DNA of 64,000 bases from Escherichia coli (GCF_003334305.1 NZ_QOWS01000018.1), one strand, 5' to 3'; shown: positions 7,694-62,617, counted from the stretch's first letter. Numbers and translations are program-made. The notes: generated by a model from the sequence alone, not told the origin.

Positions 7694-7711
7694 AAAGGCC
7701 ATATTAGTGGA

Positions 7712-14152: not shown

Positions 14153-14478
14153 ATACATTTTACCGGTTTTGGCAGGCCAGCAATTTTGGTGGCTTGCTTA
14201 GCCGGACCTTTCGGAAACAGTCGATATAAATAGCGGCTGTTACCTTTTTCTTCGCCAAATTTATTCGCCATCGCTTTTACCAGCATACGAATCGCCGGAG
14301 AAGTATTGAATTCCAGATAGAAATCACGCACAAAACGCACCACTTCCCAGTGTTCTGGCGACAGCGAAATCCCTTCGTTCTCTGCAATCACCACAGCCAG
14401 CGGCTCACTCCACTGGCTGCTTTCTTTGAGATAGCCTTCGGTATCCGTTTCTATCTCTTTACCTTCGAAGATCAGCAT
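14149..14478 (-). CDS. tusE: Sulfurtransferase TusE (DsrC family)
   Basis: 109-aa [25 protein letters not shown]...PKPVKCI, with the C-terminal Cys typical of TusE/DsrC. Confidence 0.93.
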
Positions 14479-14568
14479 AATTATTACTACCTTAATCAGA
14501 CTGGCGGCAGTGTAACAAAAAACAAAGCCCCGCATAAAGCGAGGCTATGAAAGTGTTAGCGGGTGAGA

Positions 14569-15228
14569 TTAATCGCGGCTAGCGAAGCCCAGAATGCTCA
14601 GCAGGCTGACGAAGATGTTGTACAGCGAAACATACAGGCTAACCGTGGCACGAATATAGTTCGTCTCACCGCCATGAATGATGTTGCTGGTTTCAAACAA
14701 GATAGCGCCAGAGGAGATCAGAATGAAGACCGCGCTGATCGCCAGATGCAGAGCAGGCAGTTGCAGGAAGATATTAGCAACCATACCAATCAGCACCACC
14801 ACAATACCCGCCATCAGCATACCGCCGAGGAACGACATATCTTTGCGGGTGGTCAGCACATATGCAGAGCAGCAGAAGAACACTAACGCCGTTCCGCCCA
14901 GTGCCATAGCGATTACGTCACCCATTCCGGCAGACAGATAGGTGTTCAGAATAGGTCCGAGGATATAACCCAGAAAACCGGTAAAGGCGAATGCGGAGAT
15001 AATCCCGGTCGGCTTATTCGCCGTTTTATAGGTCAGGAACATCAAACCATACATACCCACCAGCGTCAGAATCAGACCCGGAGATGGCAGCATCAGCACC
15101 GTACTGGCAGTTGCGGTAATCGCCGAAAAGGCCAGCGTCAGGCTCAGCAGAAAATAGGTATTACGCAGCACCTTATGGGTGCTAAGCAGTGATGTACGGT
15201 CATGTGAAGAACTAACAATACGATCCAT
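14569..15228 (-). CDS. yccA: BAX-inhibitor-1 family membrane protein YccA (FtsH modulator)
   Basis: 219-aa polytopic [32 protein letters not shown]..., recognised as YccA. Confidence 0.94.
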
Positions 15229-15434
15229 TGAGTCACTCTCTATGACAGATGTAATTAATTAAGCAGCATAATGATAATGCGTAAGGGCACCCAGAAGTTT
15301 TACCCATCTTTACGCATTTGATCTGGAACAGGTTTAACAGCGGATTATCAGGTCATTAAGCAAATATAACGCCCTGAGAATTTCGACAGGCAAAAGAAAA
15401 AGGGGTTAGCATTTAGCTAACCCCTTATCTTATT

Positions 15435-15522
15435 TGGCGGAAGCGCAGAGATTCGAACTCTGGAACCCTTTCGGGTCGCCGGTTTTCAAGACCGGTGCCT
15501 TCAACCGCTCGGCCACACTTCC
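15435..15522 (-). tRNA. serT: tRNA-Ser (anticodon UGA)
   Basis: The complement reads GGAAGTGTGGCCGAGCGGTTGAAGGCACCGGTCTTGAAAACCGGCGACCCGAAAGGGTTCCAGAGTTCGAATCTCTGCGCTTCCGCCA. It is 88 nt with a long variable arm, a T-arm GTTCGAATC, anticodon loop CU-UGA-AA and an encoded CCA. Confidence 0.95.
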
Positions 15523-15948
15523 GGAATGACGCGCACTATAAACATCCCGATGCGGCGTGTAAACCCCTAATTTGTTTGTTTGCCTGAAAAACAGCCAAAA
15601 GTGCATTGATAGCGTGAAATAACAGCAGATTGATCATTTCATCACCATGAATTCCTTCTCTTTTACTCGTTTAGCAACCGGCTAAACATCCCCACCGCCC
15701 GGCCAAAAGAAAAATAGGTCCATTTTTATCGCTAAAAGATAAATCCACACAGTTTGTATTGTTTTGTGCAAAAGTTTCACTACGCTTTATTAACAATACT
15801 TTCTGGCGACGTGTGCCAGTGCAGAAGGATGAGCTTTCGTTTTCAGCATCTCACGTGAAGCGATGGTTTGCCTTGCTACAGGGACGTCGCTTGCCGACCA
15901 TGTGCGCCCGGTGTCCTGCCGGTGTCGCAAGGAGAAGAGACGTGCGAT

Positions 15949-34208: not shown

Positions 34209-34493
34209 ACAAATTCCTTACTGAAAATACTGCGCTGCACTATACGGGGTTAATAAAATAAAGCCAGCGATATTTAAGACCGCCGGACGGCTAAAATAAA
34301 ATTTGCTTAATCTCAATTATCATGCGTTAATAGCTGCGTCGGTTTGAAAGACAGACAGCATACAAAGTAGTTTACTAAAGCAGTTCTCATTATCAGGCAT
34401 TATCCCCTTCTTTTGAGTCTCTCTCCTGAACACTAAGTAGTTTCTGTATTAAAGCCCTGTTTGCCGAAAGGCCCAAAATGAAGGAAGTAAAAT

Positions 34494-34706
34494 ATGTCTA
34501 ATAAAATGACTGGTTTAGTAAAATGGTTTAACGCAGATAAAGGTTTTGGCTTTATCACTCCTGATGATGGCAGCAAAGACGTTTTCGTCCATTTCACTGC
34601 CATCCAGAGCAATGAATTCCGCACGCTGAACGAAAATCAGAAAGTTGAATTTTCTATTGAGCAGGGGCAACGTGGCCCCGCGGCAGCGAACGTTGTTACG
34701 CTCTAA
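34494..34706 (+). CDS. cspG: Cold-shock protein CspG
   Basis: 70-aa [38 protein letters not shown] with RNP1/RNP2 motifs. Confidence 0.96.
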
Positions 34707-34905
34707 GGTTGCCGTTATTACTCAACATCTCCATTTCCGCTGTCCATGTTGTCATGGTTCACAGTACCGTACATCGGCATTCGATGTGACGGAGCGAAAC
34801 CCTTTGGGCGCTAAGTGTATTTTTTGTAAATCGACGATGATCACCTTTGATAACGTCGCGCTGCAAATATGCACGGACCATGCGCCGCTGGATTTCACAA
34901 AATAA
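34645..34905 (+). CDS. Small Cys-rich (CxxC...CxxC) zinc-ribbon-like ORF, start uncertain
   Basis: The track ORF contains [36 protein letters not shown]. The listed ATG lies inside cspG in another frame, and an in-frame TTG at 34693 is an alternative start. I vaguely recall a small annotated gene (ymcF) here in K-12 but cannot confirm it. Confidence 0.35.
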
Positions 34906-50087: not shown

Positions 50088-50693
50088 TTAGCCGTTAAGT
50101 TTAACTGCCAGACCTGCGACATATTCCCCTTGATAACGAGCAATAGACAGTTCTTCCTGGCTTGGCTGGCGTGAGCCGTCACCGCCTGCGATGGTTGTTG
50201 CGCCGTACGGCGTACCGCCGCGAACCTGTGAAACGTCAAATAATTCCTGCGCTGCGTAGCCAATGGGGACAATTACCATGCCGTGATGCGCAAGGGTCGT
50301 CCAGGTTGAAGTAATAGTTTGTTCCTGACCGCCGCCAGTACCGGTGGAACTAAAGACGCTCGCCAGTTTTCCGTATAGTGCGCCGGAAGCCCACAGGCCG
50401 CCCGTCTGGTCGAGGAAGGTACGCATTTGACCGGACATGTTGCCAAAGCGGGTAGGTGTACCAAAAATAATGGCGTCGTAATCGGCCAGTTCTTGCGGGG
50501 TTGCAACCGGTGCAGTTTGCGTTTTACCGCCTGCTTTTTCAAATAATTGCGGCGGCATGGTTTCCGGTACACGCTTAACGACAACTTCTGCGCCATCCAC
50601 TTTGCTTGCACCCTCAGCGACTGCGCGTGCCATCGTTTCAATATGTCCGTACATGGAATAATAAAGCACTAGTATTCTTGCCTTAACACTCAT
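50088..50693 (-). CDS. wrbA: NAD(P)H:quinone oxidoreductase WrbA with an element-encoded substitute N-terminus
   Basis: The 201-aa ORF is identical in pattern to recalled WrbA from [21 protein letters not shown] onward. It begins MSVKARI instead of the K-12 MAKV. Those first codons and the GGAG RBS lie inside the inserted element (50670-50705). Confidence 0.9.
50663..50669. repeat. attL junction core (AAAGCAC)
   Basis: This is the last bases matching the wrbA sequence as recalled (GTGCTTT on the gene strand). The sequence diverges from 50670. Confidence 0.75.
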
Positions 50694-50744
50694 ATCATTG
50701 TTCTCCTGTTCAATGAACCACTTAGATAAGCATAGTCCGAAGAT

Positions 50745-52388
50745 ATGAAGCTGCTAGTGACATACATCAGGTGGAGTACTAAAGAGCAAGACTCAGGAGA
50801 CTCCTTAAGACGACAAACAAACCTCATTGATGCTTTCTACTCTAAGCACAAAAACGATTATTACCTTCTTCCTGCTCACAGATACGTTGATAAGGGTAAA
50901 TCTGGTTTTCACCAGCAACATAAGAATCAAGGTTCTGACTTCAGACGTATGTTTGAAAATGTTATGTCTGGGGCTATTCCAGAAGGTTCCCTGATTGTTG
51001 TAGAGAACTTTGACCGCTTCAGTAGGGCTGATATCGACACAGCTATAGATGATGTCAGGCAGATACTGAGGAAGGGAGTCTCTATACTGACTCTGGGAGA
51101 TGGTGAACTCTACGACAAGTCAGCATTAACAGACCCTGTGAAGCTGATTAAGCACATCATCATAGCTGAGCGAGCACATCAGGAATCTCTTGTTAAACAA
51201 AAGCGTATAGCTCAGGTCTGGAACCATAAAACACAGCTTGCAAGAGAACTTAAGAAGCCTATGGGTAAGCAAGCCCCCGGATGGTTAGAGCTATCAGAAG
51301 ACGGTTCACACTACATCGTTGATGAAGATAAAGCGTCACTGGTGAATATCATCTATGACAAGCGTCTTTCTGGTATGTCGATGTTTGCTATCTGCAAATG
51401 GCTAAACGAACAAGGTTACCCGACCATTAATCAGCGTAAGGTCAGAATATCCAAGACTAAGAAACCGGATGGTAACTGGTCAGCTTTAAGCGTTAAACAC
51501 ATCCTGACTTCACGAAGTGTATTAGGTTACCTTCCCGCTAAGATTTCTACAGAAGACCGTAAAACAGTGTTACGTGAAGAAATTGAAGGGTTCTATCCTC
51601 AGATTGTCACAGATTCTAAGTTTTACGCTGTACAGCAACTGTTAGAGGAAACAGGGAAGGGGAAAACATCCAGCGGTGACCACTGGTTATACGTGAACAT
51701 ACTGAAGGGGCTTATCCGTTGTAAGTGTGGGCTTGTAATGACTCCTACAGGGATACGTAAACCCGTTTATCAAGGTACTTACCGTTGCAATGGTAATAAG
51801 GAGTCCCGTTGTAGCTACGGTACAGTGTCCAGAAAGTTACTTGATACACAGCTTTGTAGTCGTCTGTTTAGCAAACTGTCACAGCTACACGATGAAGCTA
51901 CCGATACAGCTAAATTAGATGAACTACAAAGAAGATTAAACACCGTTGATGGTGAACTGGAAAAACTCACTGAGACGCTGATACAGCTTCCTAACATCAC
52001 TCAGATTCAAGAAGCACTACGGGTTAAACAGGAAGAAAAAGATGAACTGATAGTTCAGTTATCACGAGAAAAGGCGAGGGTAAAATCTGTATCAAGCTTG
52101 GATTTAAGCGGTCTTGATATGGAGTCTGTAGAGGGGAGAACTGAAGCCCAGATTATCATTAAGCGTCTGGTGAAAGAGATTGTTGTTTCTGGTAATGAAA
52201 AGCTGGTGGATATATATCTTCACAATGGAAATATGATTCGTGGTTTCCCTCTTGATGGTAAAGATGACCACACCTTAACGCTTGAAGAAGCAACCGATGA
52301 GATGCAGTCACTAGATGATATGCTTATTTTTGGTGAACCAGTAACAAGGATTTATCCTGCTGGTGATATGGAAGAGGTGGACGCTTAG
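50745..52388 (+). CDS. Large serine recombinase (integrase)
   Basis: 547 aa. N-terminal catalytic domain with YIRWSTKEQ (Ser nucleophile) and [11 protein letters not shown] recombinase domain, Cys-rich zinc-ribbon-like segment (CKCG...[14 protein letters not shown]) and a coiled-coil-like C-terminal region ([22 protein letters not shown]) follow. Confidence 0.88.
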
Positions 52389-53173
52389 TATTTTTTATTA
52401 GGGTTCACTGAGTACTTTTTAAGCTTTGAAGCTACTCGACCAGCGTTACTATTAGCATTGGTGACGTTGGTTTTTTCAGCTTCTGTTAAGTCTGAATAGT
52501 CCAGCTTCCAAGCCTTATTACACTTAATCTGAGCATCGAGAATATCATTTCTGATAGCTGGAGCGTAACCGGATACATCGCTAATACTCATTAGCTCTTT
52601 GCACGATAGCATAGGCGCGTTATTGCGTTCAGTGGTCACGTTACCTGCATTCTTCTTACTGGTCACACCACCATCATTCGTAGTCGCGGCTTTTCCAGTT
52701 GCAGCCGAGATATCAGTCTGCCCCACAACAGCTTTGAAGTTAATTTCCTGAAAAGTTAGTTGGATTCTTAATCCGTTTGAAATTCCAACATCTTTAGAGG
52801 CTTTAAAACTTGTGATAATGGAATCATCAATTTTAATTCCGTCTTTACAGATGACAGAAATAATCTGCTTCTGGTCACGCCAGTTTTCCAGAGTGTCAAT
52901 GAAGTTCTCTACTAATTGACCCTGACGAGTTAATAGTAAGCTTCCTTCATAACCAACTACAACGACACCACTGATAGTGATTGTTCTGGGTGCTCTTTGA
53001 ACATTATCTGTGACGGTTTGCCCTGATTGCATGTTCTGTGTAGTCACCTGCATAGGGCTATCAAATTCCATATTTTCAGTTGCTGATAAGGTTAAGAAGG
53101 CATCTACATTATCTCTTAAGTGGAAGTAAACGCCATCTTTGCCACTGTAGCGGATTTGATTGCTAAAAATCAT
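52385..53173 (-). CDS. Putative distal-tail/baseplate (Dit-like) protein
   Basis: Start set at ATG 53173, with AAGGAG six nt upstream, rather than the track's TTG at 53194. It lies immediately downstream of the tape-measure gene. The segment [34 protein letters not shown] resembles, from memory, the N-terminal pattern of Dit-like tail proteins. Not verified. Confidence 0.45.
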
Positions 53174-53190
53174 TAAATTCTCCTTTGATT

Positions 53191-53234
53191 TCAAAGGCTT
53201 AGTGTATTTTAATCATTTTTAACCAAGCCTTTGA
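53191..53234 (-). promoter_or_regulatory. 5'-leader hairpin preceding the Dit-like gene RBS
   Basis: Perfect 10-bp inverted repeat TCAAAGGCTT (53191-53200) / AAGCCTTTGA (53225-53234) with a 24-nt loop, between repeat cassette R1 and the RBS. Confidence 0.5.
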
Positions 53235-53253
53235 TATATAAGTATTTTCTCTG

Positions 53254-53323
53254 TTAAGCGTGAGCTACGTAAATTCTATTTTTCAGTGCGGGTATTAACT
53301 TTGCTTTATTCACGTAGAACACC
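53254..53323 (-). promoter_or_regulatory. Repeat cassette R1 (promoter-like) upstream of the Dit-like gene
   Basis: 70 bp, about 88% identical by eye to 55517-55586. On the gene strand it carries TAGAAT (complement of 53273-53278) with no good -35, plus CTACGTGAA and TACGTA boxes. Confidence 0.55.
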
Positions 53324-53329
53324 GTTAAA

Positions 53330-55498
53330 TCAATCATCTTCTGGGAATGATGAACTTAATAACGTAGCTTCTGCATATTGGTCGTAGATATTACTGCTAA
53401 AGGTCATAAAGCTGGTTTCATCTGGTTTAATGGCAACTTCACCACCAAGTGAAACTTTCACAGGCTCCTGAATACGCTTACTTAAAGCAGAGATTTCATC
53501 CCTCAGACCCTGAATATCTGCACTCGTTAATGCTGAATCTTGCTTAATGTTGTTTAATTCTGGATGATTGAATCTTGCAATATTCATTGTGGCATTGTTA
53601 AACAATTCACCCATTGAACTAAAAATTCTACTCCATCCTTCGTTAATCACATTCGGTTTATTAGGGTCACCAGAATACACAGGATTAAAGTCACTACCCA
53701 CACCTACCCCAGATGGATGCATATTAGCGTTTTTGACTACTTCCTGATTCATAAAATCCAGTGCTTTCTTCAATGCATATAAACCAAGAGTGACACCTCT
53801 GATTTGTGGAATCATTGAAGCTAATGCTAACGCTGTTTCATAACCGTCATCAGCATAACCAATTGCAAGAGCACTACCTACACCACCAGCTACACCTTTC
53901 AGTTTTCCACCACCTTTACCAGTAGCTACCTGACCAGCCACCTGATTAGCTCTTGTACCTAACGTTGTGATTGCTCTTGTCAGGTTCATAACCCCTGTAG
54001 TAGCACTGAATAGTGTCTTTGCAGATAACGCTATAGCAAGACCTTTGACGAAGTTGATAAATCCATCACCGACTTCATCAAGTAGCTTTCGCTTAGTGTC
54101 ATCAAGGCTGTAATAGGTCTTCTTAATCTGTAGAATCCAGCCTTCAAGGTGATTGTTAAAGATACGGATGTCATCTACACCAGCTTTAAGCATGTCGATA
54201 AGTCCACCGATAGCATCACCAGCGATAGAAGAACTCATACCCATTTCACTAAGCAGGTTACTCAGGCTGGATAAGAAGCCATTTAGCTCATCCTGTGAAC
54301 CTGAGAAGATTTTCACCATCGTATCATCCCAGTTGTTAGCCAGTTTCCCTAAAGCTGTCTGAGTGCTCTTAGCGACTTCAGCCCAGCCACCCGCTTTATC
54401 AATCATCAAGCCCATCTGTTTAGCGACTTTAGGGAGAGTATCACTACTTAAAATCTTCCCGTCTTTCATCGCTTTATCAAGCTCTGTAGCAGTCATACCC
54501 AGTGCTTCAGCGAATAGCTTAAATGCACCAGCCATACGGTCACCTAACTGACCACGAAGCTCTTCAGCCTGAATCTTGCCCTTGCTCGCCATCTGCTCAA
54601 ATGCTTTCAAAATGCCGTTTAGCTCATCGTTAGAAAGCCCCATTAAGCGACTCATAGCCGTTGCATTACCAAATAGCTCCTGTGTCTGTTCCTGTGACAT
54701 AGAACCCTGAGCACCTGCTGCAAACTTAGCGTAGCTTGATAGCCCTTCAGAGATATTAAGACCTGTCTTGTCTGCTAAATTTCGAATAAATACCTCAGCT
54801 TCAGATGCTTTATCACCAAGTACAAACTTAGCGGCTCTCTGTGCGGAATCTCGTTTAAGACCTGCATTCATGATGGCCTTGTAAGCGTTAAGAGCACCCA
54901 TCACAGAGTAAAATGCACCAGATAACTTGATTGCATTGCTTGCAAGATTATTAAATGCGTCGCTTGTATTGTTAATGCTGGTGGATGTATGACCTTTAGC
55001 TTTAGCAATTGCTTCTCTGACTGAAGCATTTAACTGAGTCAGCTTCTCATTGAATTTTGAAGAATCCATTGACCCAGCTTTAGCAGATAGCCCGTAAAAC
55101 TGAGATTTGATGTATTTCTGCAAAATAGGGTCAAAGCCTTTTAGCTTAGACATATTAGCTGAGTAAGCCGCTGTGATTGCTCTGTTGCCGCTAATTCGTG
55201 GCTGTCTTGGTTGTCTAAGTGGCTTTAAAGTGTCATCAATTTCCGTTTTAATCTTAAACGCTCTAGTGTTTTTAAGACGCTGCTCAATCTTGGAAACAGT
55301 TTTATCGACATTCTTTTCCATTAGTTTGAGAGAATCATTTAAAGGCGTAGGGTTAACTCTGAATGCCTTATTTAGTCGTTTCTCAATTCTTGATGCGATT
55401 TGCATCGTTTGTTTCTCGGCTTTTTCCAAGCCTTTTAAAACTTTCTGAGAGCTAAAACTTAGCTCAATCAAAAAATCATCAACTTTAAATTGTGCCAT
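53330..55498 (-). CDS. Phage tail tape-measure protein
   Basis: 722 aa, Ala/Gly/Leu-rich and predicted largely helical. The segment LNGILKAFEQMASKGKIQAEELRGQLGDRMAGAFKLFAEALGMTATELDKAMKDGKILSSDTL matches the conserved tape-measure core domain as I recall it (TIGR02675-type). A Gly-rich tract GKGGGKLKGVAGGVG follows. RBS is AAGAGGTG. Confidence 0.85.
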   Translation of the reverse strand: MAQFKVDDFLIELSFSSQKVLKGLEKAEKQTMQIASRIEKRLNKAFRVNPTPLNDSLKLMEKNVDKTVSKIEQRLKNTRAFKIKTEIDDTLKPLRQPRQPRISGNRAITAAYSANMSKLKGFDPILQKYIKSQFYGLSAKAGSMDSSKFNEKLTQLNASVREAIAKAKGHTSTSINNTSDAFNNLASNAIKLSGAFYSVMGALNAYKAIMNAGLKRDSAQRAAKFVLGDKASEAEVFIRNLADKTGLNISEGLSSYAKFAAGAQGSMSQEQTQELFGNATAMSRLMGLSNDELNGILKAFEQMASKGKIQAEELRGQLGDRMAGAFKLFAEALGMTATELDKAMKDGKILSSDTLPKVAKQMGLMIDKAGGWAEVAKSTQTALGKLANNWDDTMVKIFSGSQDELNGFLSSLSNLLSEMGMSSSIAGDAIGGLIDMLKAGVDDIRIFNNHLEGWILQIKKTYYSLDDTKRKLLDEVGDGFINFVKGLAIALSAKTLFSATTGVMNLTRAITTLGTRANQVAGQVATGKGGGKLKGVAGGVGSALAIGYADDGYETALALASMIPQIRGVTLGLYALKKALDFMNQEVVKNANMHPSGVGVGSDFNPVYSGDPNKPNVINEGWSRIFSSMGELFNNATMNIARFNHPELNNIKQDSALTSADIQGLRDEISALSKRIQEPVKVSLGGEVAIKPDETSFMTFSSNIYDQYAEATLLSSSFPEDD

Positions 55499-55516
55499 TG
55501 TTCATATTTCACCTCT

Positions 55517-55586
55517 TTAAGCGTGAGCTACGTAAATTCTATTTTTCAGTGTGGGTATTAGCTTTACAGATTTCACGTAGCACACA
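55517..55586 (-). promoter_or_regulatory. Repeat cassette R2 (promoter-like) upstream of the tape-measure gene
   Basis: Second copy of the 70-bp cassette. TAGAAT (complement of 55536-55541) lies about 38 nt upstream of the TMP ATG, directly downstream of a terminator. Confidence 0.55.
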
Positions 55587-55616
55587 TAGGATTCGATAGA
55601 AGACTATCTCATATAC

Positions 55617-55656
55617 AAAAAAGGAGAGTTACCGATGTCACTCGATAATCTCTCCC
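55617..55656 (-). terminator. Rho-independent terminator ending the 236-aa/71-aa transcription unit
   Basis: On the minus strand, GGGAGAGATTA...TAACTCTCC forms a hairpin (stems at 55650-55655 and 55623-55628) followed by a T6 run (55622-55617). Confidence 0.7.
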
Positions 55657-55699
55657 GTAGATTTTTACCCAACCAATTCTATTAGAAGCTAATCTCAAA

Positions 55700-55915
55700 T
55701 TAATGGTAAACGTAAGAATACATCCCATCATCACCTAAAATCTGTGCGTCACATGGTAATTTATCTAAGCACCATGAAGGAATCTTACGTACCTTTGGTT
55801 TATGTGAGGTGATAACTTGATGCTGATTTTTAATTCGTAGCTTTGGTTTAGTCTGAAGCTTTAAGTTCTCACAAACAGACTTAATAAGTTCATAGCGTTC
55901 TGTTAAATCAATCAT
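55700..55915 (-). CDS. Hypothetical protein (71 aa)
   Basis: ORF MIDLTERYELIKSVCENLKLQTKPKLRIKNQHQ... with RBS AAGAGGTGG. No family recognised. Confidence 0.6.
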   Translation of the reverse strand: MIDLTERYELIKSVCENLKLQTKPKLRIKNQHQVITSHKPKVRKIPSWCLDKLPCDAQILGDDGMYSYVYH

Positions 55916-55938
55916 TCACCACCTCTTTTAATTCATAG

Positions 55939-56649
55939 TTAAAGTGCCTTGCTATATTTCTGAGAAATCTTCACTAACTGCTCAATATCAGCCTGCATAG
56001 CAATCTTCTTCTGCGTTTCATATGCAGAAATAAGCTCTTTCATAGCCTGAAGCTCTCTTGAGAGATACAACTTAACATTTTCAAGTTGCTTGTTACGTGA
56101 TGCCAAGATGTTCTGTCTGGCAAGTTCAGCGAGTTCTTCATCGCTCTTATTAGTCGTGTAAATAAACTGACCAGCACCCCTTGAAGCTTTAACCATCTTC
56201 ACAATTCGATATCCAGCAGGAAGACTACTAATCACGGCTGCGACGTTTTCTTGAAAAGTACCAAAACCATCATTGTCTTCGTATGTGAAGTAAACATACG
56301 GCTTCTGTGACAATTCATCCTGAATCTCAAATTCTGACGGCTCAATAGCTGATTGCATCAGGGTAACTTTACTGTAAGCATCATCTAGTTTAATACGCTG
56401 TGCTTTTAGCAGTGGGTAATATTCACGCTCAAGCTCAAGTAATGCTTCAGTTTTGCATACATCAGGCATCTCTTGAGGCTCAGGAGACACAAAGATGATT
56501 TCCTTTGGTGACATTCGGATTTCTTGCTCAAGCTTAATTCTTTCATCGTGTTCTTTACGCTGAATAGCGATAGCTGGATGTTCAGTCTGTGGCGACCAGT
56601 CACCGAAGCTATCAATCACTTTGCCATTAATGTAAATATCATTTGTCAT
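55939..56649 (-). CDS. Hypothetical protein (236 aa) with a coiled-coil-like C-terminus
   Basis: ORF MTNDIYINGKVIDSFGDWSPQTEHPAIAIQ... with RBS GAGGAA. The C-terminal 70 aa are heptad-rich (LENVKLYLSRELQAMKELISAYETQKKIAMQADIEQL). No family recognised. Confidence 0.7.
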   Translation of the reverse strand: MTNDIYINGKVIDSFGDWSPQTEHPAIAIQRKEHDERIKLEQEIRMSPKEIIFVSPEPQEMPDVCKTEALLELEREYYPLLKAQRIKLDDAYSKVTLMQSAIEPSEFEIQDELSQKPYVYFTYEDNDGFGTFQENVAAVISSLPAGYRIVKMVKASRGAGQFIYTTNKSDEELAELARQNILASRNKQLENVKLYLSRELQAMKELISAYETQKKIAMQADIEQLVKISQKYSKAL

Positions 56650-56679
56650 TGTTTTTTCCTCTTCTAAGCTAAAGTATTT

Positions 56680-56765
56680 CAGTTTTTAAAAAGCACACCT
56701 GACAGCCTATCTAAACTTAGAAGAGACTTAAAAGGCGGTTTGCCAAGTATGCTTTTTAAAAGCTG
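56680..56765 (-). promoter_or_regulatory. Long inverted repeat in the leader of the 236-aa gene
   Basis: Arms CAGTTTTTAAAAAGCACAC (56680-56698) and GTATGCTTTTTAAAAGCTG (56747-56765) are complementary at about 17 of 19 positions, separated by about 48 nt. Confidence 0.5.
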
Positions 56766-56801
56766 AAAAAGCCCTAGATAACTAAAACGCTATAAAGGGC
56801 T
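56765..56801 (-). terminator. Attenuator-like hairpin plus T-run inside the leader
   Basis: On the minus strand, AGCCCT (56801-56796), a 20-nt loop, AGGGCT (56775-56770), then TTTTT (56769-56765). Located about 115 nt upstream of the 236-aa gene start. Confidence 0.4.
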
Positions 56802-57008
56802 AAGGTGAAGAAATTAAAACATCTAAAGGATTCAATAACGAATGAACAAAGACTTTTCGAGATAGCCTCTCAGGTTGTATAAGAGGCCATGTAGCGAAAA
56901 GCATTGCACCTTTCAGAATGTTCGGTATAGAACATACCTCACCAACTCAGAATATCCATCCATCGGATTATTGAAATAAATAAGAGAGAAATTCTCTCTA
57001 TAATTAAA

Positions 57009-57037
57009 ATTATGTCATGCTTAAGGTTATTTGTCAA
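57009..57037 (-). promoter_or_regulatory. Sigma70-type promoter (minus strand)
   Basis: TTGACA (complement of 57032-57037), a 17-bp spacer, then CATAAT (complement of 57009-57014). Followed at about +3 by the palindrome AGAGAGAA-A-TTCTCTCT (56983-56999). Confidence 0.55.
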
Positions 57038-57062
57038 CAGCTTTTTAACAGATTGGTAACAT

Positions 57063-57128
57063 TTATACTTTAATAGATGCACCTGCAATCATACCAATCA
57101 ACACAAAACAGAGAATCACCAATTCCAT
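57063..57128 (-). CDS. Candidate 21-aa hydrophobic peptide
   Basis: Hand-translated: MELVILCFVLIGMIAGASIKV. Its ATG overlaps the TAA of the upstream gene (TAATG), suggesting translational coupling. Confidence 0.4.
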   Translation of the reverse strand: MELVILCFVLIGMIAGASIKV

Positions 57129-57451
57129 TAATGCACCACCTTCGAATCCGTAACCAGAATATTATCGCTGTACAAAATTGCTATAGCCGCCTTGAGATAT
57201 TTTTCAGGGCTAACGCTGTATTTGTTCGTTTGCTCGACAACCAATCTTTTCATGTTGCTGTCTTTAATTGGTAGCATCATTCGAGGCTCGTTAAACTCCA
57301 CCGACTGAATAAAGTCAGAGATGCTTTCCGCATTATCAGTCATTAACTCTAACAACTTATCAAAGTCAATGCTAACACCTACATCAGTGAAAGCCTGAAT
57401 CATCATGGCGGTGTCGGTATCAATAAAAATCTGTAATTCGTAATTGTTCAT
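57128..57451 (-). CDS. Hypothetical acidic protein (107 aa)
   Basis: Start set at ATG 57451 (MNNYELQIFIDTD) with AAGGAG upstream. The track's TTG start at 57484 is rejected. No family recognised. Confidence 0.65.
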   Translation of the reverse strand: MNNYELQIFIDTDTAMMIQAFTDVGVSIDFDKLLELMTDNAESISDFIQSVEFNEPRMMLPIKDSNMKRLVVEQTNKYSVSPEKYLKAAIAILYSDNILVTDSKVVH

Positions 57452-57606
57452 TTTTAAAATCTCCTTTTTACCAGACCTCCTCAATCGCTCTGTAACGAGC
57501 TAAACAGTCTTTTTCAGGGGTAGCCTGTACAGTGGTATTACCCACCCTAAAATAAGATAGTTTTTTGCGTCAGAATGCGATTGAGAGCGTCTGAGAAGCT
57601 GTTTTT

Positions 57607-57894
57607 CTAATTTCTCTTAAAGTCTCGGACTTGCATAAGATTTTTTGGTCTGGTATCGGCTCTGTTACCATTTCGATGGATAATTTGCTTGTTGGATTGA
57701 TAGCCATGATAAAGAAACCAGACAACATATTTCACGTAGAAAGTATATCGGCCTATATTAAATGTTTTGTTGCCGTAGTCGTCGGTGTTTATCGTGACTG
57801 ACTCTCCATCAGACCAGCACAGGGAATCACTGGATTCATCATAGATAAGGTGTTCTGCAAAATATCTTCTAACATCTTCATTCCAAGGTTTCAT
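57607..57894 (-). CDS. HNH-like small protein (degenerate motif)
   Basis: 95 aa. YVVWFLYHGYQSNKQIIHRNGNRADTRPKNL resembles the HNH_3-type pattern (aHRlvw...G..idHiNGn..DNR..NL), but the usual Asp preceding the His and the DNR Asn are substituted. Confidence 0.5.
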   Translation of the reverse strand: MKPWNEDVRRYFAEHLIYDESSDSLCWSDGESVTINTDDYGNKTFNIGRYTFYVKYVVWFLYHGYQSNKQIIHRNGNRADTRPKNLMQVRDFKRN

Positions 57895-58106
57895 AAAACC
57901 TCCTCACCCCAATAACCTAATTCAATCTTGTGACGCTCAAACCATTCCGGTTTAACTGCTGTTTTCAGTACTTCATTTGGGCCAATGGCTTTAATGAAAA
58001 TATCTTTTGAGTTATGGATGTCACCGAATCCGTTTCCTTCAATCAGGAGGTCGGAGATGTAGCGAATCATTTTATCCGTGTGGTATTCAAAGGTAACGCA
58101 TAGCAT
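57891..58106 (-). CDS. Hypothetical protein (71 aa)
   Basis: ORF coupled at both ends: TAATG with the upstream gene and ATGA with the downstream gene. No family recognised. Confidence 0.6.
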   Translation of the reverse strand: MLCVTFEYHTDKMIRYISDLLIEGNGFGDIHNSKDIFIKAIGPNEVLKTAVKPEWFERHKIELGYWGEEVL

Positions 58107-58387
58107 TAAACCTCCAGAGACAGCTTGTGAATCTTAAGACTCAATAGACGGGCAATATCAATTTTAAAGCCGTTAAGTCCCTTCAAAGTATCTAAAGCGT
58201 CCTGAGTAATTCGGATGTGTTTACGACCTTTAGAGACTGGATATTTAAGTAAATCCGACTCAGTAACCTCTTTAGCAATTGCAAGCTGCATAACAGTCTG
58301 ATGAGGTAAGTTAGTAGCTCGTTTAATTCTGGCAAGCTCGTTAAAAGCTTCCTCTGAAATGCGGGTTAAAGTGTGTTTGTTTTTCAT
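58106..58387 (-). CDS. Putative tandem ribbon-helix-helix DNA-binding protein (93 aa)
   Basis: Two internal segments look like an RHH beta-strand plus helix: KHTLTRISEEAFNELARIKR and RKHIRITQDALDTLKGLNG. Inference from the pattern only. Confidence 0.4.
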   Translation of the reverse strand: MKNKHTLTRISEEAFNELARIKRATNLPHQTVMQLAIAKEVTESDLLKYPVSKGRKHIRITQDALDTLKGLNGFKIDIARLLSLKIHKLSLEV

Positions 58388-58388
58388 T

Positions 58389-58943
58389 TTAAAATTCCTC
58401 TGTAACTAAATACGGGTCAAATTCAAAGTCTGGTTCACTGGTTGTAAGGCTGATATTTCCAACTTCCGCATGATGATTAATTGTCTCAATAACTTTCATG
58501 CAAATAGTGGCTAAGTTAGCGCAATATTTATCACTTGGTAATTCGTAGCTAAGTCTGGTTGCTTGTCTTTGAAGATGGCTCGTCACTGTGCTTGAACTAA
58601 TCTCATCAAGACTTCGCAGTAAATAAAAAACCTTCCGGTGATAATTATCTCTTCCAAGACTGCGACAAGTACCGATAATTACATCTTCAATTCGTGGCGG
58701 TAATTGCTCGTAAGAATCAAAGCCCATCAAGAAAGTTTTTAAAGTATTCTCTTTTTCTTTGCGTGCTGGCATAAATCTGTCTCGTGGCGTAATGCTACGA
58801 ATGACCGCTTCAATGTTCTTACGTTCGGATTTGCTAAAGGTTGGGACTTCGTAGCTGGTGGGGGTGTCTGTGTGGCTGTAACCGTTGTGTCTGTTGCGTT
58901 CTCTTGATGCCTGAAGCATCGCTCTAAATTCTCTGTCGTTCAT
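58389..58943 (-). CDS. Hypothetical protein (184 aa), first gene of the leftward operon
   Basis: ORF MNDREFRAMLQASRERNRHNGYSHTD... directly downstream of the promoter at 58994-59022. No family recognised. Confidence 0.65.
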   Translation of the reverse strand: MNDREFRAMLQASRERNRHNGYSHTDTPTSYEVPTFSKSERKNIEAVIRSITPRDRFMPARKEKENTLKTFLMGFDSYEQLPPRIEDVIIGTCRSLGRDNYHRKVFYLLRSLDEISSSTVTSHLQRQATRLSYELPSDKYCANLATICMKVIETINHHAEVGNISLTTSEPDFEFDPYLVTEEF

Positions 58944-58993
58944 TCATAAGCTAGTCCTTATAATTGTTAATTCTCTGTTAACTTATATATACA

Positions 58994-59022
58994 ATACTAG
59001 CATTTTCAAAGACTAATGTCAA
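58994..59022 (-). promoter_or_regulatory. Sigma70-type promoter of the leftward operon
   Basis: TTGACA (complement of 59017-59022), a 17-bp spacer, then TAGTAT (complement of 58994-58999). Confidence 0.6.
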
Positions 59023-59029
59023 GCATTTT

Positions 59030-59059
59030 TTAACATTTCATTAACATCTGTGGTATAAT
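59030..59059 (+). promoter_or_regulatory. Divergent extended -10 promoter (rightward)
   Basis: TTAACA (59030-59035), then TGG-TATAAT (TG at 59051-59052, TATAAT at 59054-59059). Back-to-back with the leftward promoter. Confidence 0.55.
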
Positions 59060-59186
59060 GGTTCTATGGGGAGAGTAAAATATAAAGGCGTGGCTATGAG
59101 GTTTATTCGATAGGGGTTGGTACAAGCCCAACCAACCGAATCAACTATGTATGTCACATGGTATTGCATTGCACACAGGAAATTTA

Positions 59187-59363
59187 ATGGTAAATCTCCC
59201 TCCTGAACTGGGGTCACCTGATGTATGGGCTGGTGGAGGTATCGGGCTGATTGCAGGTCTGTTACTCCGCTACGTCCTTGTCAGAGTGCTTGTTGTGTTC
59301 CGATTGTTCGGTCGTACATGGACGCTTGACCTTAAGGATAATGAGCACACAGAACCCCGTTAA
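59187..59363 (+). CDS. Candidate small membrane protein (58 aa; 70 aa if started at 59151)
   Basis: MVNLPPELGSPDVWAGGGIGLIAGLLLRYVLVRVLVVFRLFGRTW... contains one hydrophobic helix. AGGAA lies 5 nt upstream of ATG 59187, while the ATG at 59151 has no RBS. The local composition is more GC-rich than its neighbours. Confidence 0.45.
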   Translation: MVNLPPELGSPDVWAGGGIGLIAGLLLRYVLVRVLVVFRLFGRTWTLDLKDNEHTEPR

Positions 59364-59406
59364 GCTCCCTTCAAATCCCCCTGTACGAGATGGCATAGGG
59401 GTGTCT

Positions 59407-59422
59407 TTAGCATTTTGTGCTA
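59407..59422. promoter_or_regulatory. Operator-like inverted repeat TTAGCA-N5-TGCTA
   Basis: TTAGCATTTTGTGCTA. The 18-nt box TCTTTAGCATTTTGTGCT (59404-59421) recurs at 60678-60695, and each copy is followed by (A)CTTGACA(G/A)AA. Confidence 0.45.
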
Positions 59423-59483
59423 TCTATTAAAAAATAACTTGACAGAACCGGAAAGCTGTATCTATCAGGTATTCACCTCTCTG

Positions 59484-59559
59484 ACAGTAACTTCTAAAAG
59501 TTCTTATTTTTCAATGAGTTGTAATCACCCATATATAGAGAACTGACAAGTCTCTTCAC
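59484..59559 (+). repeat. 76-bp direct repeat, copy 1
   Basis: ACAGTAACTTCTAAAAGTTCTTATTTTTCAATGAGTTGTAATCACCCATATATAGAGAACTGACAAGTCTCTTCAC. About 89% identical to copy 2, and the last 31 nt are identical. Confidence 0.9.
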
Positions 59560-59578
59560 AATTAACTCTGTAACCTTA

Positions 59579-59654
59579 ACAGTGATTTCTAAAAATGCTT
59601 ATTTTTCAATAAGTTGTAATTAGCCATATATAGAGAACTGACAAGTCTCTTCAC
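59579..59654 (+). repeat. 76-bp direct repeat, copy 2
   Basis: ACAGTGATTTCTAAAAATGCTTATTTTTCAATAAGTTGTAATTAGCCATATATAGAGAACTGACAAGTCTCTTCAC. The period is 95 bp. Confidence 0.9.
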
Positions 59655-59971
59655 GGAGAACTTCCTGGACTCACTAAGATACAAGGCGATAACCCCAGAA
59701 AGGGAGAGCCACCTTCTAATTGGTATTGTTATGAGGATGCTTCATCCGAATCATCTACCAATCCCTAAACCGACTTCTTAAACAATCTTTACAGACCCCG
59801 TTCACCAGTCTCAATATTTTTATTTCTCGCTCTTCGTTTGTTGCTCGTTTCTATTATTGAGGGGGTTTGAAAAACCTCTGTAAAATAACCCTTCCAGTAA
59901 AAAGCGAATAACCCCAGAGAGGGGGAATCGCCTCTTTAACATTCTCATAATCAGTGCTCTATATGAGAATT

Positions 59972-60640
59972 TCAGCCCAACCTTTGAACAATCTTGTAAG
60001 TGGTGCTTAGAGGCATTCTTAGCGATTCTGCGATGCTCTTGACGGATTGCCCTTGGCCATGCAGTTTAATCAGCCTGTCAAGCGTCTGTGCATCGTGTAT
60101 ATGAGGTCTTCCACGTAAACCACCCCTGTTAACCACGGCAAGTAAAAGCATTGTGTCGCCACAATAGATTGTTTGTGTAACTTCAACCTTCGGTTTACGG
60201 GGTGTGTTCCTGTATATCAAAACGCAACTTGCAAACGGTGAACGCACTACAACACCTTTCTTCCCTGCTGGTGGAAGGTATTTGACTGCTCGGTGTAACG
60301 TTCGAATCTCATGCAGAAAGGGGTTTGTATATACACACCGAAGCCAGTAAGTTGTCTTTGACCTGTGCGGAACCAGACATACACACACATCAGCTTCATG
60401 GGATTTTAGGAGGAACCTTTCAGCCATGCTAAACGGCGGGTTAACGAAGACCCGTTCACCAACCCATGATTGATTGTGAATATCATCGGTGAACCGTGGC
60501 AACAATGCGTCATGCTCAGTTGCAGCACCATCCATCGAAAAACCAAATTCACGGTGTAGGTTACGAAATAAACGATACGGTGTACGCCAGTCATCAGAAC
60601 CACCATGATAACGACCGACATTGATTATTGGATGTGACAC
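59972..60640 (-). CDS. Phage Dam-type N6-adenine DNA methyltransferase fused to a C-terminal HTH
   Basis: 222 aa with a GTG start. SDDWRTPYRLFRNLHREFGFSMDGAAT and VFVNPPFS (NPPF catalytic motif) fit the phage Dam family (pfam05869-like, from memory). The C-terminal GQSVKSIAESLRMPLSTTYKIVQRL looks like a resolvase-type HTH. Confidence 0.75.
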   Translation of the reverse strand: MSHPIINVGRYHGGSDDWRTPYRLFRNLHREFGFSMDGAATEHDALLPRFTDDIHNQSWVGERVFVNPPFSMAERFLLKSHEADVCVCLVPHRSKTTYWLRCVYTNPFLHEIRTLHRAVKYLPPAGKKGVVVRSPFASCVLIYRNTPRKPKVEVTQTIYCGDTMLLLAVVNRGGLRGRPHIHDAQTLDRLIKLHGQGQSVKSIAESLRMPLSTTYKIVQRLG

Positions 60641-60677
60641 AAGCGAAGCGCCCCTCTTAGTATATTTCTTAATCGTC

Positions 60678-60724
60678 TCTTTAGCATTTAGTGCTTTTTG
60701 TTAAGTTTAGCACTTTTTGCTAAA
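60678..60724. promoter_or_regulatory. Two operator-like inverted repeats upstream of the methyltransferase gene
   Basis: TTAGCATTTAGTGCT (60681-60695) and the perfect TTTAGCA-CTTTT-TGCTAAA (60706-60724), followed by TTGACA at 60735-60740. Confidence 0.45.
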
Positions 60725-61142
60725 GACAAAACACTTGACAAAATGGTAAGATTGTTCACATGACCTTACTTAACAGATTCTTAAGAGCTTTGAAACGAAC
60801 TGTTTAACAAGGTCACTACCTCTGGTCTTATCGTTCCCTCTCTTCTTGGTAGTTCTGTTAAGTATCTTTTCAGGTATCTCTTACAGTCACTGTTAAGATA
60901 GAACCTACCTTCGGTTTCATGGTTCTCTTCCTCCCGTTAAATATCCCTTCACAGTCAGACTAAATAACACCTCTGTAGTTTCTTGGTAGAATCTTTCAAG
61001 GTAACTTAACTCTGAGTTTATGAAGTTGACCTTAGTCAATGTTTGTGAAGGTGTTACAGAGCATGTTCTCTAGGTCTGTGTAGCTCACTAAGCGAGAGAG
61101 GGGATATGTGACCATAGGGGAACCCCTCCTGTTAAAAGTTTC

Positions 61143-61170
61143 TTGATGTTATCATCACAATATGTATAAT
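61143..61170 (+). promoter_or_regulatory. Sigma70-type promoter (plus strand) in an ORF-free region
   Basis: TTGATG (61143-61148), a 16-bp spacer, then TATAAT (61165-61170). Confidence 0.55.
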
Positions 61171-61176
61171 CACCAA

Positions 61177-61337
61177 CTGTACAGACACCTTAACGGTTTC
61201 TCTACACCTCACTATGGCTAGGTAGGGTATGGTTTAGCTTGGTACGGCTAGGTTAGGTCTGGTTTGGTTAGGTATGGGTGGATTGTCGTAGCCACGTTAA
61301 AAATCGACTTATAGGGACTCTTTCGGGAGTCCTTTTT
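61177..61337 (+). ncRNA. Candidate ~160-nt small RNA with tandem 15-nt G/T-rich units
   Basis: Bounded by the promoter at 61143-61170 and the terminator at 61315-61337. It contains no ORF longer than 5 codons. Five consecutive 15-nt units begin at 61216, 61231, 61246, 61261 and 61276 (GGCTAGGTAGGGTAT / GGTTTAGCTTGGTAC / GGCTAGGTTAGGTCT / GGTTTGGTTAGGTAT / GGGTGGATTGTCGTA). Confidence 0.35.
61315..61337 (+). terminator. Rho-independent terminator (plus strand)
   Basis: GGACTC (61315-61320), loop TTTCGG, GAGTCC (61327-61332), then TTTTT (61333-61337). Confidence 0.65.
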
Positions 61338-61541
61338 AGTTTGTATAAAATCTGTACAGGAGTTATCAGGCTTCTAAAATTTTTATAAAAAATAATCAGA
61401 CCTCTTCTAAGCCTCTTCAACCAAATCTTTCGAAAATATCTGACAGATGTCTGTAGCTGCTAAGTACCCGTCACACCAGCTATGTGACCCCCTTGGCAAA
61501 AAAGCCAAATATCAGCTACATCCATGTAACTATTCAGTAAC

Positions 61542-62093
61542 TTATTTAGCAAGTCTGTAATAAGTTGCTCTAGAGATTCCTAACTCTTCCTGAATCTGCA
61601 ACCTCGTCTTACCTTGTGAAATAAGCGTCTGTACAGCCTCTGAAGAAGCCTTTACAGGCCTCCCCATATGTACCCCTTCAGCTTTAGCACGTTCAATACC
61701 AGCCTTTCTACGCTCTGCTATCAAGCTTCTTTCAAGCTGTGCCAACGTTGACATAATGCCTAACATTGCTTCACCCATAGCGCTTGATAAGTCAAACCCT
61801 TCTCTAAGGCTGATAACTGTCACACCTTTAGCCTGTAGCGCTTTAACCGTTGATAACACATCAATTGTGTCACGTCCAAGACGGTCTACAGCTACCACAA
61901 CTACGGTGTCACCTTCTCGTGCATAAGCTAACAAACTACTGAAACCGTTTCTTAAAGAAGCTTTGACAGAACCACTGACAGCTTCATCAGTGAACCATTT
62001 AGCAATGTTGTACCCTGCCTCTTCAATTTGCATTTGCTGGTTAGTGATGGATTGGTCATCTGTACTCACCCTGCAATATCCAAGTATCGCCAT
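61542..62093 (-). CDS. Small serine recombinase (resolvase/invertase family)
   Basis: 183 aa. MAILGYCRVSTDDQ (Ser nucleophile), VVAVDRLGRD, an E-helix LAQLERSLIAERRKAGIERAKAEG, GRP, and a C-terminal HTH ISRATYYRLAK. Confidence 0.9.
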   Translation of the reverse strand: MAILGYCRVSTDDQSITNQQMQIEEAGYNIAKWFTDEAVSGSVKASLRNGFSSLLAYAREGDTVVVVAVDRLGRDTIDVLSTVKALQAKGVTVISLREGFDLSSAMGEAMLGIMSTLAQLERSLIAERRKAGIERAKAEGVHMGRPVKASSEAVQTLISQGKTRLQIQEELGISRATYYRLAK

Positions 62094-62107
62094 ACATCCC
62101 CCTTAGA

Positions 62108-62231
62108 AGTCTCAAAAGTTAGTCTCATAAGTTTAGCTGTCTCATAATCCAAAAACAACCTTTTGAGACTACTTGAGGGTGCATTCTACCGTTACGTTGA
62201 AAGTGTCTCAAAAGGAAGTCCTTTTAAGACT
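62108..62231. promoter_or_regulatory. res-like cluster of recombinase binding sites
   Basis: There are six GTCTCA / T(G/A)AGAC half-sites. They include a 28-bp inverted pair TGTCTCAAAAGGAAGTCCTTTTAAGACT (62204-62231), a 33-bp inverted pair TGTCTCATAATCCAAAAACAACCTTTTGAGACT (62138-62170), and AGTCTCAAAAGTTAGTCTCATAA (62108-62130) next to the recombinase start. Confidence 0.6.
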
Positions 62232-62427
62232 GGTTATGAAGGAGCTATGAAGATTTTAGGAGGGTAACTATAACCATCACTTTCTAACTTTCACGTAGGA
62301 AATCGTTAAGTTTCTTGATAGTTACACCATGTGACCAACTATCTATATATCGTTATATAGCCCTGTATATAACACTTTTCTAGGAGTCGAGAGAGGGACG
62401 ACTAACACGATACAGTTTACCCTGAAA

Positions 62428-62447
62428 AGAGACTTCACAGATTCTCT
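62428..62447. repeat. Inverted partial third copy of the 76-bp repeat core
   Basis: AGAGACTTCACAGATTCTCT compares with the reverse complement of AGAGAACTGACAAGTCTCT (59537-59555 and 59632-59650). It is flanked by TCTCTATATAT and TTCAATAAGTT, which are also shared with the repeats. Confidence 0.7.
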
Positions 62448-62610
62448 ATATATTTCAATAAGTTAGGCTAAAAAGAGACTATACCGATACTGTATAGAAT
62501 CTGTGTAGAATTGCTTAGATACTTGGAAAAATGCCTTTAAATTGAATAGGTACTAACCTGTTTATGTCCTGTTATTAACAGGTAGTTGAATGTACGTGTT
62601 TAGCTATGTA

Positions 62611-62617
62611 AAAGCAC
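62611..62617. repeat. attR junction core (AAAGCAC)
   Basis: Identity with the native wrbA 5' end as recalled resumes here (AAAGCACCAGAACTTTAGCCAT is the complement of ATGGCTAAAGTTCTGGTGCTTT). Confidence 0.75.

Follow-up and report, generated by a model that had tools for sequence, protein, structure and literature searches.

Non-coding control DNA of a mobile Escherichia coli island and its similarity to Felix O1-like phages

Described satellites and an island in wrbA

Two described systems are among the closest to the locus analyzed here, an integrative island of around 12 kb in a 64,000-nt stretch of Escherichia coli DNA (GCF_003334305.1, NZ_QOWS01000018.1; this whole stretch is called the window below) that contains four long stretches without open reading frames (ORFs). 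Like the island, satellite P4 is integrative, measures about 12 kb, and has no capsid genes, and it carries the genome-end or packaging signal of its helper in cis for the helper terminase, for which the island has a putative counterpart. However, P4 has its own primase-helicase and origin, the capsid-size protein Sid, a tyrosine integrase, CI RNA immunity, and a temperate helper, phage P2, whereas the island combines a serine integrase and tail genes with no recognizable replication gene, and its putative helper is a virulent myovirus with direct terminal repeats. A virulent myovirus as helper (ICP1), a large serine recombinase, and a large repeat-bearing non-coding region are likewise features of PLE from Vibrio cholerae. 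Unlike the island, PLE measures around 18 kb, encodes RepA together with many other proteins, and has no tail genes, and we know of no copying of helper non-coding DNA by PLE. Its non-coding region with repeats holds cis-acting replication sequences (PMC7145576).

The four stretches of the island (56650-57062, 59364-59971, 60641-61541, and 62094-62610) contain no ORF of 60 or more amino acids (aa) in the ORF list of the window, as an earlier note made from the sequence had observed, and the ORF nearest to this cut-off (59251-59430) has 59 aa. Non-coding DNA amounts to 3,192 of the 11,866 bp of the element (27%) when all intergenic DNA is counted, which exceeds the roughly 20% given in that note. 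These stretches are conserved non-coding control DNA of a mobile island. The key fact, absent from the earlier note, is homology to the non-coding DNA of Felixounavirus as seen in sequence comparisons, which suggests that the island hitch-hikes on Felix O1-like phages by mimicry of non-coding signals. On balance, it seems somewhat probable to us that the stretches without ORFs serve as cis-acting and regulatory DNA in a satellite-like island that parasitizes virulent phages of the Felix O1-like kind (Ounavirinae).

The borders of the island lie as follows:

50669-62617: whole integrative island of 11,949 bp, inserted into wrbA at its 5' end, with the attL core AAAGCAC at 50662-50668 and the attR core at 62611-62617

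The sequence of the window is chromosomal E. coli DNA that matches strain A7 at 100% identity, and the island is located between wrbA and ymdF. Since the chromosomal flank resumes at 62611 with the AAAGCAC core of attR, the right end proposed previously (62610) was essentially correct. One contig from a metagenome, L050 (11,233 bp, its ends overlapping by 55 bp), represents the island in circularly permuted form and contains the attP junction, in which window position 62617 is joined directly to 50669 across the core AAAGCAC. This junction sets the island limits to 50669-62617 and reveals a form that is either excised or tandem. Relatives with the same gene order were found at wrbA/ymdF, at tonB/yciI, and in yecE, so that these islands use at least 3 att sites, each with its own serine integrase (28%-35% identity between integrases). 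Of 5,426 complete E. coli genomes, 523 (around 10%) carry DNA similar to 60641-61541, always on the chromosome, never annotated in RefSeq, and in up to 3 copies per genome, and many assemblies hold the island as a separate contig of 11-12.5 kb. The only match in the GTDB collection with one genome per species was E. albertii. IMG/VR returned contigs of 25-55 kb only, several of them with host flanks, and no virion-like contigs of 12 kb.

Thirteen related islands were compared in a MAFFT alignment, and inversions were surveyed over 68 related loci. Several non-coding blocks match genes in their conservation (column identity 0.93-0.97), including 59394-59544 (0.96-0.97) and 62394-62494 (0.93-0.96), and these conserved blocks alternate with cassettes that exist as discrete, unrelated alleles. 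Literature searches found no satellite of Felix O1-like phages, no GGT-repeat RNA, and no account of the island.

Phage-like non-coding DNA between 60641 and 61541

A blastn search of the phage collection with 58900-62605 gave matches in Ounavirinae only, all of them in un-annotated DNA, and the non-coding phage homology is confined to 60641-61541 (nhmmer E = 1e-7 to 1e-14). No significant phage similarity was detected for 56650-57127, 58944-59150, 59364-59971, 62094-62610, or the 69-nt repeats upstream of the tape measure protein (TMP) and Dit genes. The phage-like stretch is a mosaic of three homologous non-coding pieces, related to the interior of the phages' direct terminal repeat (DTR), to a repeat-bearing unit that we call the GGT-pentad unit, and to the right boundary of the DTR:

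60745-60863, + strand: DTR-interior-like block, containing GGTCACTACCTCTGGTCTTATCGTTCCCT and a local cluster of CTTAACA-type motifs
61143-61170, + strand: sigma-70 promoter TTGATG-16-TATAAT with 10 of 12 consensus positions, containing AAGTTTCTTGAT
61206-61316, + strand: GGT-pentad unit, with (GGTNN)13 at around 61216-61280, a stem formed by 61285-61288 and 61305-61308, and the conserved loop TAGCCACGTTAAAAAT
61313-61340, + strand: intrinsic terminator from a terminator scan, GGGACTCTTTCGGGAGTCC followed by TTTTT, with a stem that covaries among island variants
61347-61515, + strand: DTR right-boundary-like block, of which around 115 nt match the unique flank and around 50 nt the repeat

Felixounavirus genomes contain an ORF-free region of 1.65 kb between convergent gene clusters (wV8 13884-15561; KEP1 6147-7797) that is rich in the strand-biased motif CTTAACA(G/A), with 14 of the 33 copies on the genome's + strand falling into this 1.9% of the genome. 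No discussion of the region was found in excerpts of the Felix O1 genome paper (PMC3185647). It contains a DTR of 580 bp, that is, the genome ends of the phage: Six GenBank phage records begin within a few bases of the same position, and the last 591 bp of phage ZX4221 are a repeat of positions 1-580 of phage H12. A DTR of 581 bp has been published for the related phage Pr103Blw (PMC8303462). Because the phage genome ends map to the 1.65-kb region, the block at 60745-60863 (blastn 85% over 59 nt to KEP1 7016-7074; nhmmer E = 2e-7 to 2e-9 to KEP1 6970-7213) corresponds to the repeat interior, and the block at 61347-61515 (nhmmer E = 2.5e-10 to wV8 15052-14914 and E = 3e-9 to KEP1 6621-6777) spans the right boundary, whose equivalent in the island lies near 61462/61463. 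The similarity is concentrated in specific motifs around this repeat boundary.

The pentad period of the GGT unit is significant (24 G-G pairs at lag 5 versus 11.6 +/- 2.0 in shuffles), and copies of the unit are found in phages wV8 (four), SUSP2 (four), and KEP1 (two); those of wV8 occupy two intergenic regions downstream of the DNA ligase gene, among genes of DNA metabolism. Across 13 distinct copies, the stem varies yet stays paired (GTCG/CGAC, GGTAG/CTACC, GGCAG/CTGCC, AGTCTCA/TGAGACT, TAATCG/CGATTA). The covariation analysis of homologous regions that the earlier note had proposed thus revealed a covarying hairpin, with 6 of 8 pairs changed on both sides and none of 500 shuffles reaching the observed score. 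A covariance model recovered the window copy with 103 bits (E = 2e-33), a single copy in each of 8 out of 12 islands, and the four copies of wV8, and found none in the flanking chromosome or in around 300 kb of other DNA searched. Minimum free energy (MFE) z-scores were not significant for the GGT unit and for 59470-59720, so that the structure of the unit is supported by covariation and not by thermodynamic stability alone. Three divergent island alleles all retain the promoter (including TTGACG..TATAAT and TTGATA-17-TAAGAT) and the covarying terminator, which supports transcription from the + strand. Promoter, covarying structure, and terminator, the marks of an independent small-RNA gene, are therefore found together on one strand, and the suggestion that the stretches contain RNA-coding units holds for at least one unit that resembles a real RNA gene.

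Two kinds of described elements resemble the GGT-pentad unit by analogy. At T4 oriF and oriG and in ColE1 RNA II, a promoter is followed by a G-rich non-template strand that favors a persistent RNA-DNA hybrid, and the promoter and (GGTNN)13 of the unit may be compared to this arrangement. Unlike these origins, the unit is closed by a terminator and its hairpin loop is conserved, and any start of replication there is hypothetical. The TRAP-binding leader RNAs of Bacillus carry 11 G/UAG triplets at a period of 5-6 nt, and the around 13 conserved triplets of the unit, each with 2 variable bases, would similarly suit the geometry of an RNA wrapped around a protein ring. Its triplets are GGU rather than GAG or UAG, the host is enterobacterial and the origin of the unit lies in phages, and no TRAP-like protein was identified.

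The site of the GGT unit is occupied differently in some relatives. One island carries another cassette, of which 43 nt (L006 11943-11985, in the cassette site that corresponds to window 61137-61345) match non-coding DNA from T5-like phages of the genus Epseptimavirus at 91% identity (e.g., rokbiter 305-346, near the start of the record), and the same cassette is borne by a partial E. albertii contig. In island L019, the cassette is replaced by an ORF of 174 aa, a candidate homing endonuclease of the HNH/AP2 type. The cassette site may collect short non-coding sequences from different virulent phages.

Exchange with the same phages is also seen in two tail genes. The Dit protein of the island is 73% identical to the Felixounavirus baseplate protein adjoining the TMP, and its gene (52640-53158) is 92% identical to phage KEP1 over 519 bp, while the TMP is homologous to the Felixounavirus TMP with only around 32% protein identity to KEP1. 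The near-identity of Dit beside such a divergent TMP indicates that island and phage have exchanged genes recently and in patches. The other island proteins do not match the phage, and matches to capsid, terminase, or replication genes are lacking.

Satellite, decoy, and other readings

Among the features that characterize satellites, the island has an integrase, defined att sites, and a circular form, and it lacks full gene sets for virion, replication, and packaging. Its genes encode a large serine integrase (547 aa), the Dit-like baseplate protein, the TMP, an HNH endonuclease, a Dam methylase with a C-terminal helix-turn-helix (HTH), a serine recombinase of 183 aa, and several small or unknown proteins. 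The remaining proteins gave no match suggestive of replication, packaging, or defense in Pfam, PHROGs, NCBIfam, or PADLOC. The proteins of 184 aa and 236 aa have no family matches, and their medium-confidence AlphaFold models (pLDDT 67 and 70) gave no Foldseek match below E = 0.1; their homologues occur mostly in Escherichia and Shigella with a few in Salmonella and are unnamed or tagged "transposase" without support. Since no replicase or terminase is recognizable in the island, cis elements such as those of 60641-61541 would be needed. After excision, the boundary-like block could be the site at which the helper terminase recognizes and cuts the island DNA, as cos does for P4, and the GGT-pentad unit might prime or attract the replication machinery of the helper. 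In the latter case, transcription from the promoter would yield a G-rich RNA and with it an R-loop, comparable to T4 oriF/oriG or ColE1; alternatively, the unit may give rise to an RNA of around 160 nt that binds a phage factor. More tentatively, the island could represent an undescribed family of satellites of virulent Felix O1-like phages that moves almost purely by cis-mimicry, with (GGUNN)13 plus hairpin as a new class of structured element (a transcription-primed origin or an RNA that binds a ring protein) shared with Ounavirinae.

Several observations weigh against such a satellite. Helper dependence, transfer, transcription, and cutting are steps that we infer from the DNA alone, a linear contig with its end at the predicted cut site was not observed, and the filling of an 88-kb capsid with 12 kb of DNA is unexplained in an island in which no capsid-resizing gene was recognized. 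Of the phage's terminal repeat, no left-boundary homologue was found in the island, and the two repeat-like blocks stand in the opposite order to the phage. At the cassette site, 2 of the 12 islands that span it have no GGT unit, 1 has the HNH gene, and 1 the other cassette; missing from 4 of 12 islands, the GGT cassette cannot be indispensable for all members. The CTTGACA at 60734, downstream of two operator-like palindromes, lacks a convincing -10 element. Finally, the most conserved non-coding blocks of all (59470-59660 and 62394-62510) have neither an explanation nor phage similarity.

A decoy or interference role is as compatible with the sequence data as the satellite reading. The phage-derived sequences would then titrate or misdirect factors of the helper (terminase, replication protein, or RNA-binding protein) and sabotage phage maturation to the benefit of the host, with the variant TMP and Dit acting as poison tail subunits. 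The mimicry itself would fit this role, the high divergence of the TMP among islands (41%-49% identity) is what an arms race would produce, the sequences that replace one another at the cassette site are related to different virulent phages (Ounavirinae or T5-like), and the lack of a recognized capsid-size gene also speaks for it. We nevertheless rate it as unlikely because the island is clearly mobile, with several att sites, different integrases, and a circular form. Defense and parasitism are also not mutually exclusive, given that known satellites both interfere with and exploit their helpers. It is less likely still that the phage-like pieces are functionless scars, that is, passive leftovers of recombination that were acquired along with the tail genes. 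Recent exchange with phages is evident from the Dit gene, and discrete alleles and small mobile modules give the region a strongly mosaic make-up, but the pieces derive from parts of the phage that lie 30-45 kb from the tail genes, and they have been kept across att-site lineages at gene-like conservation. Moreover, their similarity focuses on motifs around the repeat boundary, and the predicted promoter, hairpin, and terminator of the GGT unit are maintained by compensatory change.

RNA-based immunity, which the earlier note had offered as a precedent, would imply that small RNAs from long leaders pair with repeated targets and silence the element. The island shares with the P4 CI and P1/P7 c4 systems long untranslated leaders and the lack of a classical, CI-like repressor, it has one likely small-RNA gene, and the leader at 56650-57127 is strongly structured and rich in terminators. 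That a classical repressor is missing was not established, however, because the Dam protein has its C-terminal HTH and a 93-aa protein has a weak DndE-like match. Unlike in these systems, a virulent phage without lysogenic immunity shares the candidate RNA, and a third of the islands lack it. The Rfam scan proposed earlier found nothing in the element, neither at the gathering score nor with E-values of up to 5 allowed. A small RNA with repeated targets complementary to it did not come to light either, though no systematic search for such pairs was made; the inverted matches between the stretches are short and imperfect (18-21 nt, 85%-90% complementary), of a size like that expected by chance, and belong to 58 such pairs in 12.5 kb. 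We therefore consider RNA immunity quite improbable. The sole Rfam matches in the window are a cspA thermoregulator and a tRNA (34338-34760 and 15438-15522), both ordinary chromosomal features. Even less can be said for decayed genes, i.e., for the stretches being pseudogenized coding DNA. Scattered ORFs of 48-90 aa do exist in 60641-61541 of some relatives, but each is limited to at most 6 of 13 loci with differing strands and frames, no ORF is conserved over the stretches in the 13 islands, and nothing is annotated in the 523 genomes with the region. These comparative data rule out the pseudogene reading and agree with the earlier view of the stretches as functional non-coding DNA.

If the satellite reading is true, the island would be an example of a satellite that borrows the cis-acting signals of its helper instead of encoding its own machinery. 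Phages of this kind are widely used in typing, biocontrol, and therapy, so that the island would have an impact on their efficacy and could disseminate DNA through transduction. Conversely, the homology would mark, in Ounavirinae, what may be the functional packaging boundary as well as a candidate for an origin or a regulatory RNA, both of which still await experimental definition. The temporal regulation of transcription is not known according to excerpts of the Felix O1 genome paper (PMC3185647).

Remaining control elements and shared motifs

The other features in and around the ORF-free stretches are the following:

56650-57127, - strand: leader of the tail-gene operon (236-aa protein, 71-aa protein, TMP, Dit), with a promoter, a terminator-like hairpin, and a long hairpin
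59151-59363, + strand: conserved small gene for a predicted membrane-spanning protein of 70 aa, present in 13 of 13 loci with 77%-95% aa identity and adjoining the stretch that begins at 59364
59404-59447, + strand: operator-like palindrome AGCATTTTGTGCT at 59409-59421 followed by CTTGACA at 59438-59444, first copy of the first module pair of the earlier note
59484-59654, + strand: tandem 95-bp repeat of 2 copies, 91% identical (repeat family D1), with 1 or 2 copies in relatives
59904-59930, - strand: terminator hairpin of the Dam gene as read from the sequence, GCGATTCCCCCTCTCTGGGGTTATTCGC followed by a T run (repeat family D16)
60678-60741, + strand: two inverted operator palindromes at 60683-60695 and 60709-60721 followed by CTTGACA at 60734-60740, second copy of the module pair (repeats I6 and I17)
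62105-62235, no strand assigned: cluster of GTCTCAWAAG-type sites directly upstream of the gene for the 183-aa serine recombinase (61542-62093, - strand), overlapping its promoter at 62211-62183
62394-62510, no strand assigned: highly conserved block with direct repeats at 62417-62450 and 62463-62496 (D7) and inverted repeats at 62433-62448 and 62493-62508 (I20)

The earlier note had seen one family of related units in these stretches. This view was not supported, as they are heterogeneous and comprise operators, terminators, a res-like site, a terminator-rich leader, and cis elements derived from phages. The six motifs on which it was based do exist where that note placed them, each with exactly 2 occurrences over both strands of the 64 kb, all inside the element. 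The four stretches contain 26 repeated 12-mers where dinucleotide shuffles predict 0.35, but most of them stem from the single tandem duplication of 95 bp (59484-59559 and 59579-59654), and 3 remain against the same expectation once its second copy is removed. As shared modules, TCTTTAGCATTTWGTGCT with CTTGACARAA, AAGTTTCTTGAT, and TAACCCCAGARAGGG exceed chance, whereas CTCACTAAG does not, being a 9-mer that is within chance on its own (around 21 repeated 9-mers expected). The 11-mer TTCAATAAGTT is marginal alone (1.8 repeated 11-mers expected) and belongs to a more extended similarity that links 59520-59560 to 62415-62455 in reverse complement. A conserved order was confirmed only for the first two or three modules and only between 59364-59971 and 60641-61541.

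The palindromes of the first module pair share AGCANNNNNTGCT, which has only 3 copies in the 64 kb, all of them in non-coding DNA of the island (59409, 60683, and 60709). The block with 59404-59447 has a column identity of 0.96 over the 13 islands, and 60678-60741 is replaced by a second, unrelated allele in 8 of them in the alignment. These shared operator palindromes might co-regulate two rightward transcripts. In its 3' part, the 95-bp repeat is inversely repeated over around 31 bp (59525-59556) at 62419-62450, and AAGAGACT is found at 62427 and 62473 on the + strand as well as at 59556 and 59651 on the minus strand. Both 59470-59660 and 62394-62510 (the latter with a column identity of 0.93-0.96 in 12 islands) may be arrays of binding sites. 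The terminator hairpin of the Dam gene has a related hairpin at 59686-59712, and both correspond to the module GCGA(A)TAACCCCAGA of the earlier note; the Dam terminator weakly matches a terminator in the ORF-free region of the phages.

The leader at 56650-57127 has the promoter TTGACA-17-CATAAT (57037-57009), conserved in 13/13 islands, which is followed by a terminator-like hairpin (56999-56983) and then by further hairpins, among them one of 28 bp; a long hairpin lies at 56677-56768 (inverted repeat I1). Its minus strand is strongly structured (MFE -116 versus -73 +/- 5.5 for shuffles, z = -7.9), and with terminators after the promoter, the tail-gene operon would be read only once termination is overcome. 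A 69-nt direct repeat (88% identical) lies at 53254-53322 and 55517-55585, in gene direction immediately upstream of the TMP and Dit genes, and may be a duplicated promoter or regulatory site.

The motif GTCTCAWAAG has 5-6 copies at 62109-62230 and none elsewhere in the 64 kb, in a cluster that also holds inverted repeat I12 and a tandem repeat. With its Resolvase and HTH_7 domains, the 183-aa recombinase and these clustered upstream sites form a resolvase/res arrangement, and we interpret the cluster as a putative res-like binding site of the recombinase. A small serine recombinase with C-terminal HTH and likely binding sites directly upstream that overlap its promoter is also seen in res and tnpR of Tn3 or gamma-delta. 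Unlike there, the motif sequence is unrelated, and the element is an island and not a transposon. Such a site would resolve multimers and allow autoregulation. Inverted repeats flank the recombinase gene (61525-61544 and 62307-62326) and the segment from Dam to the recombinase; an invertible segment of the Hin/Gin type was rejected, as no inversion above 170 bp was present in the 68 related loci and none in the first 12 loci.

Among the 13 islands, the gene at 59151-59363 is the sole conserved small ORF near the stretches; it overlaps 59251-59430 on the + strand, and both frames are open in 13/13 islands. Directly upstream of it, a palindromic module beginning with GGGGTTGGTACAAGCCCAACC at 59093-59149 differs in position among relatives, where it is found after the recombinase gene (L002, L004, and L021), within the boundary-like block (L006), or near the right end (L020), and it resembles a miniature mobile element or a portable terminator. 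An intergenic segment of around 150 bp (57469-57632) has an inverted copy of around 69% identity in the non-coding region of 11 related islands. The perfect palindrome CCTGTTATTAACAGG at 62566-62582, just inside the att-specific end, is the last sequence common to islands with different integrases.

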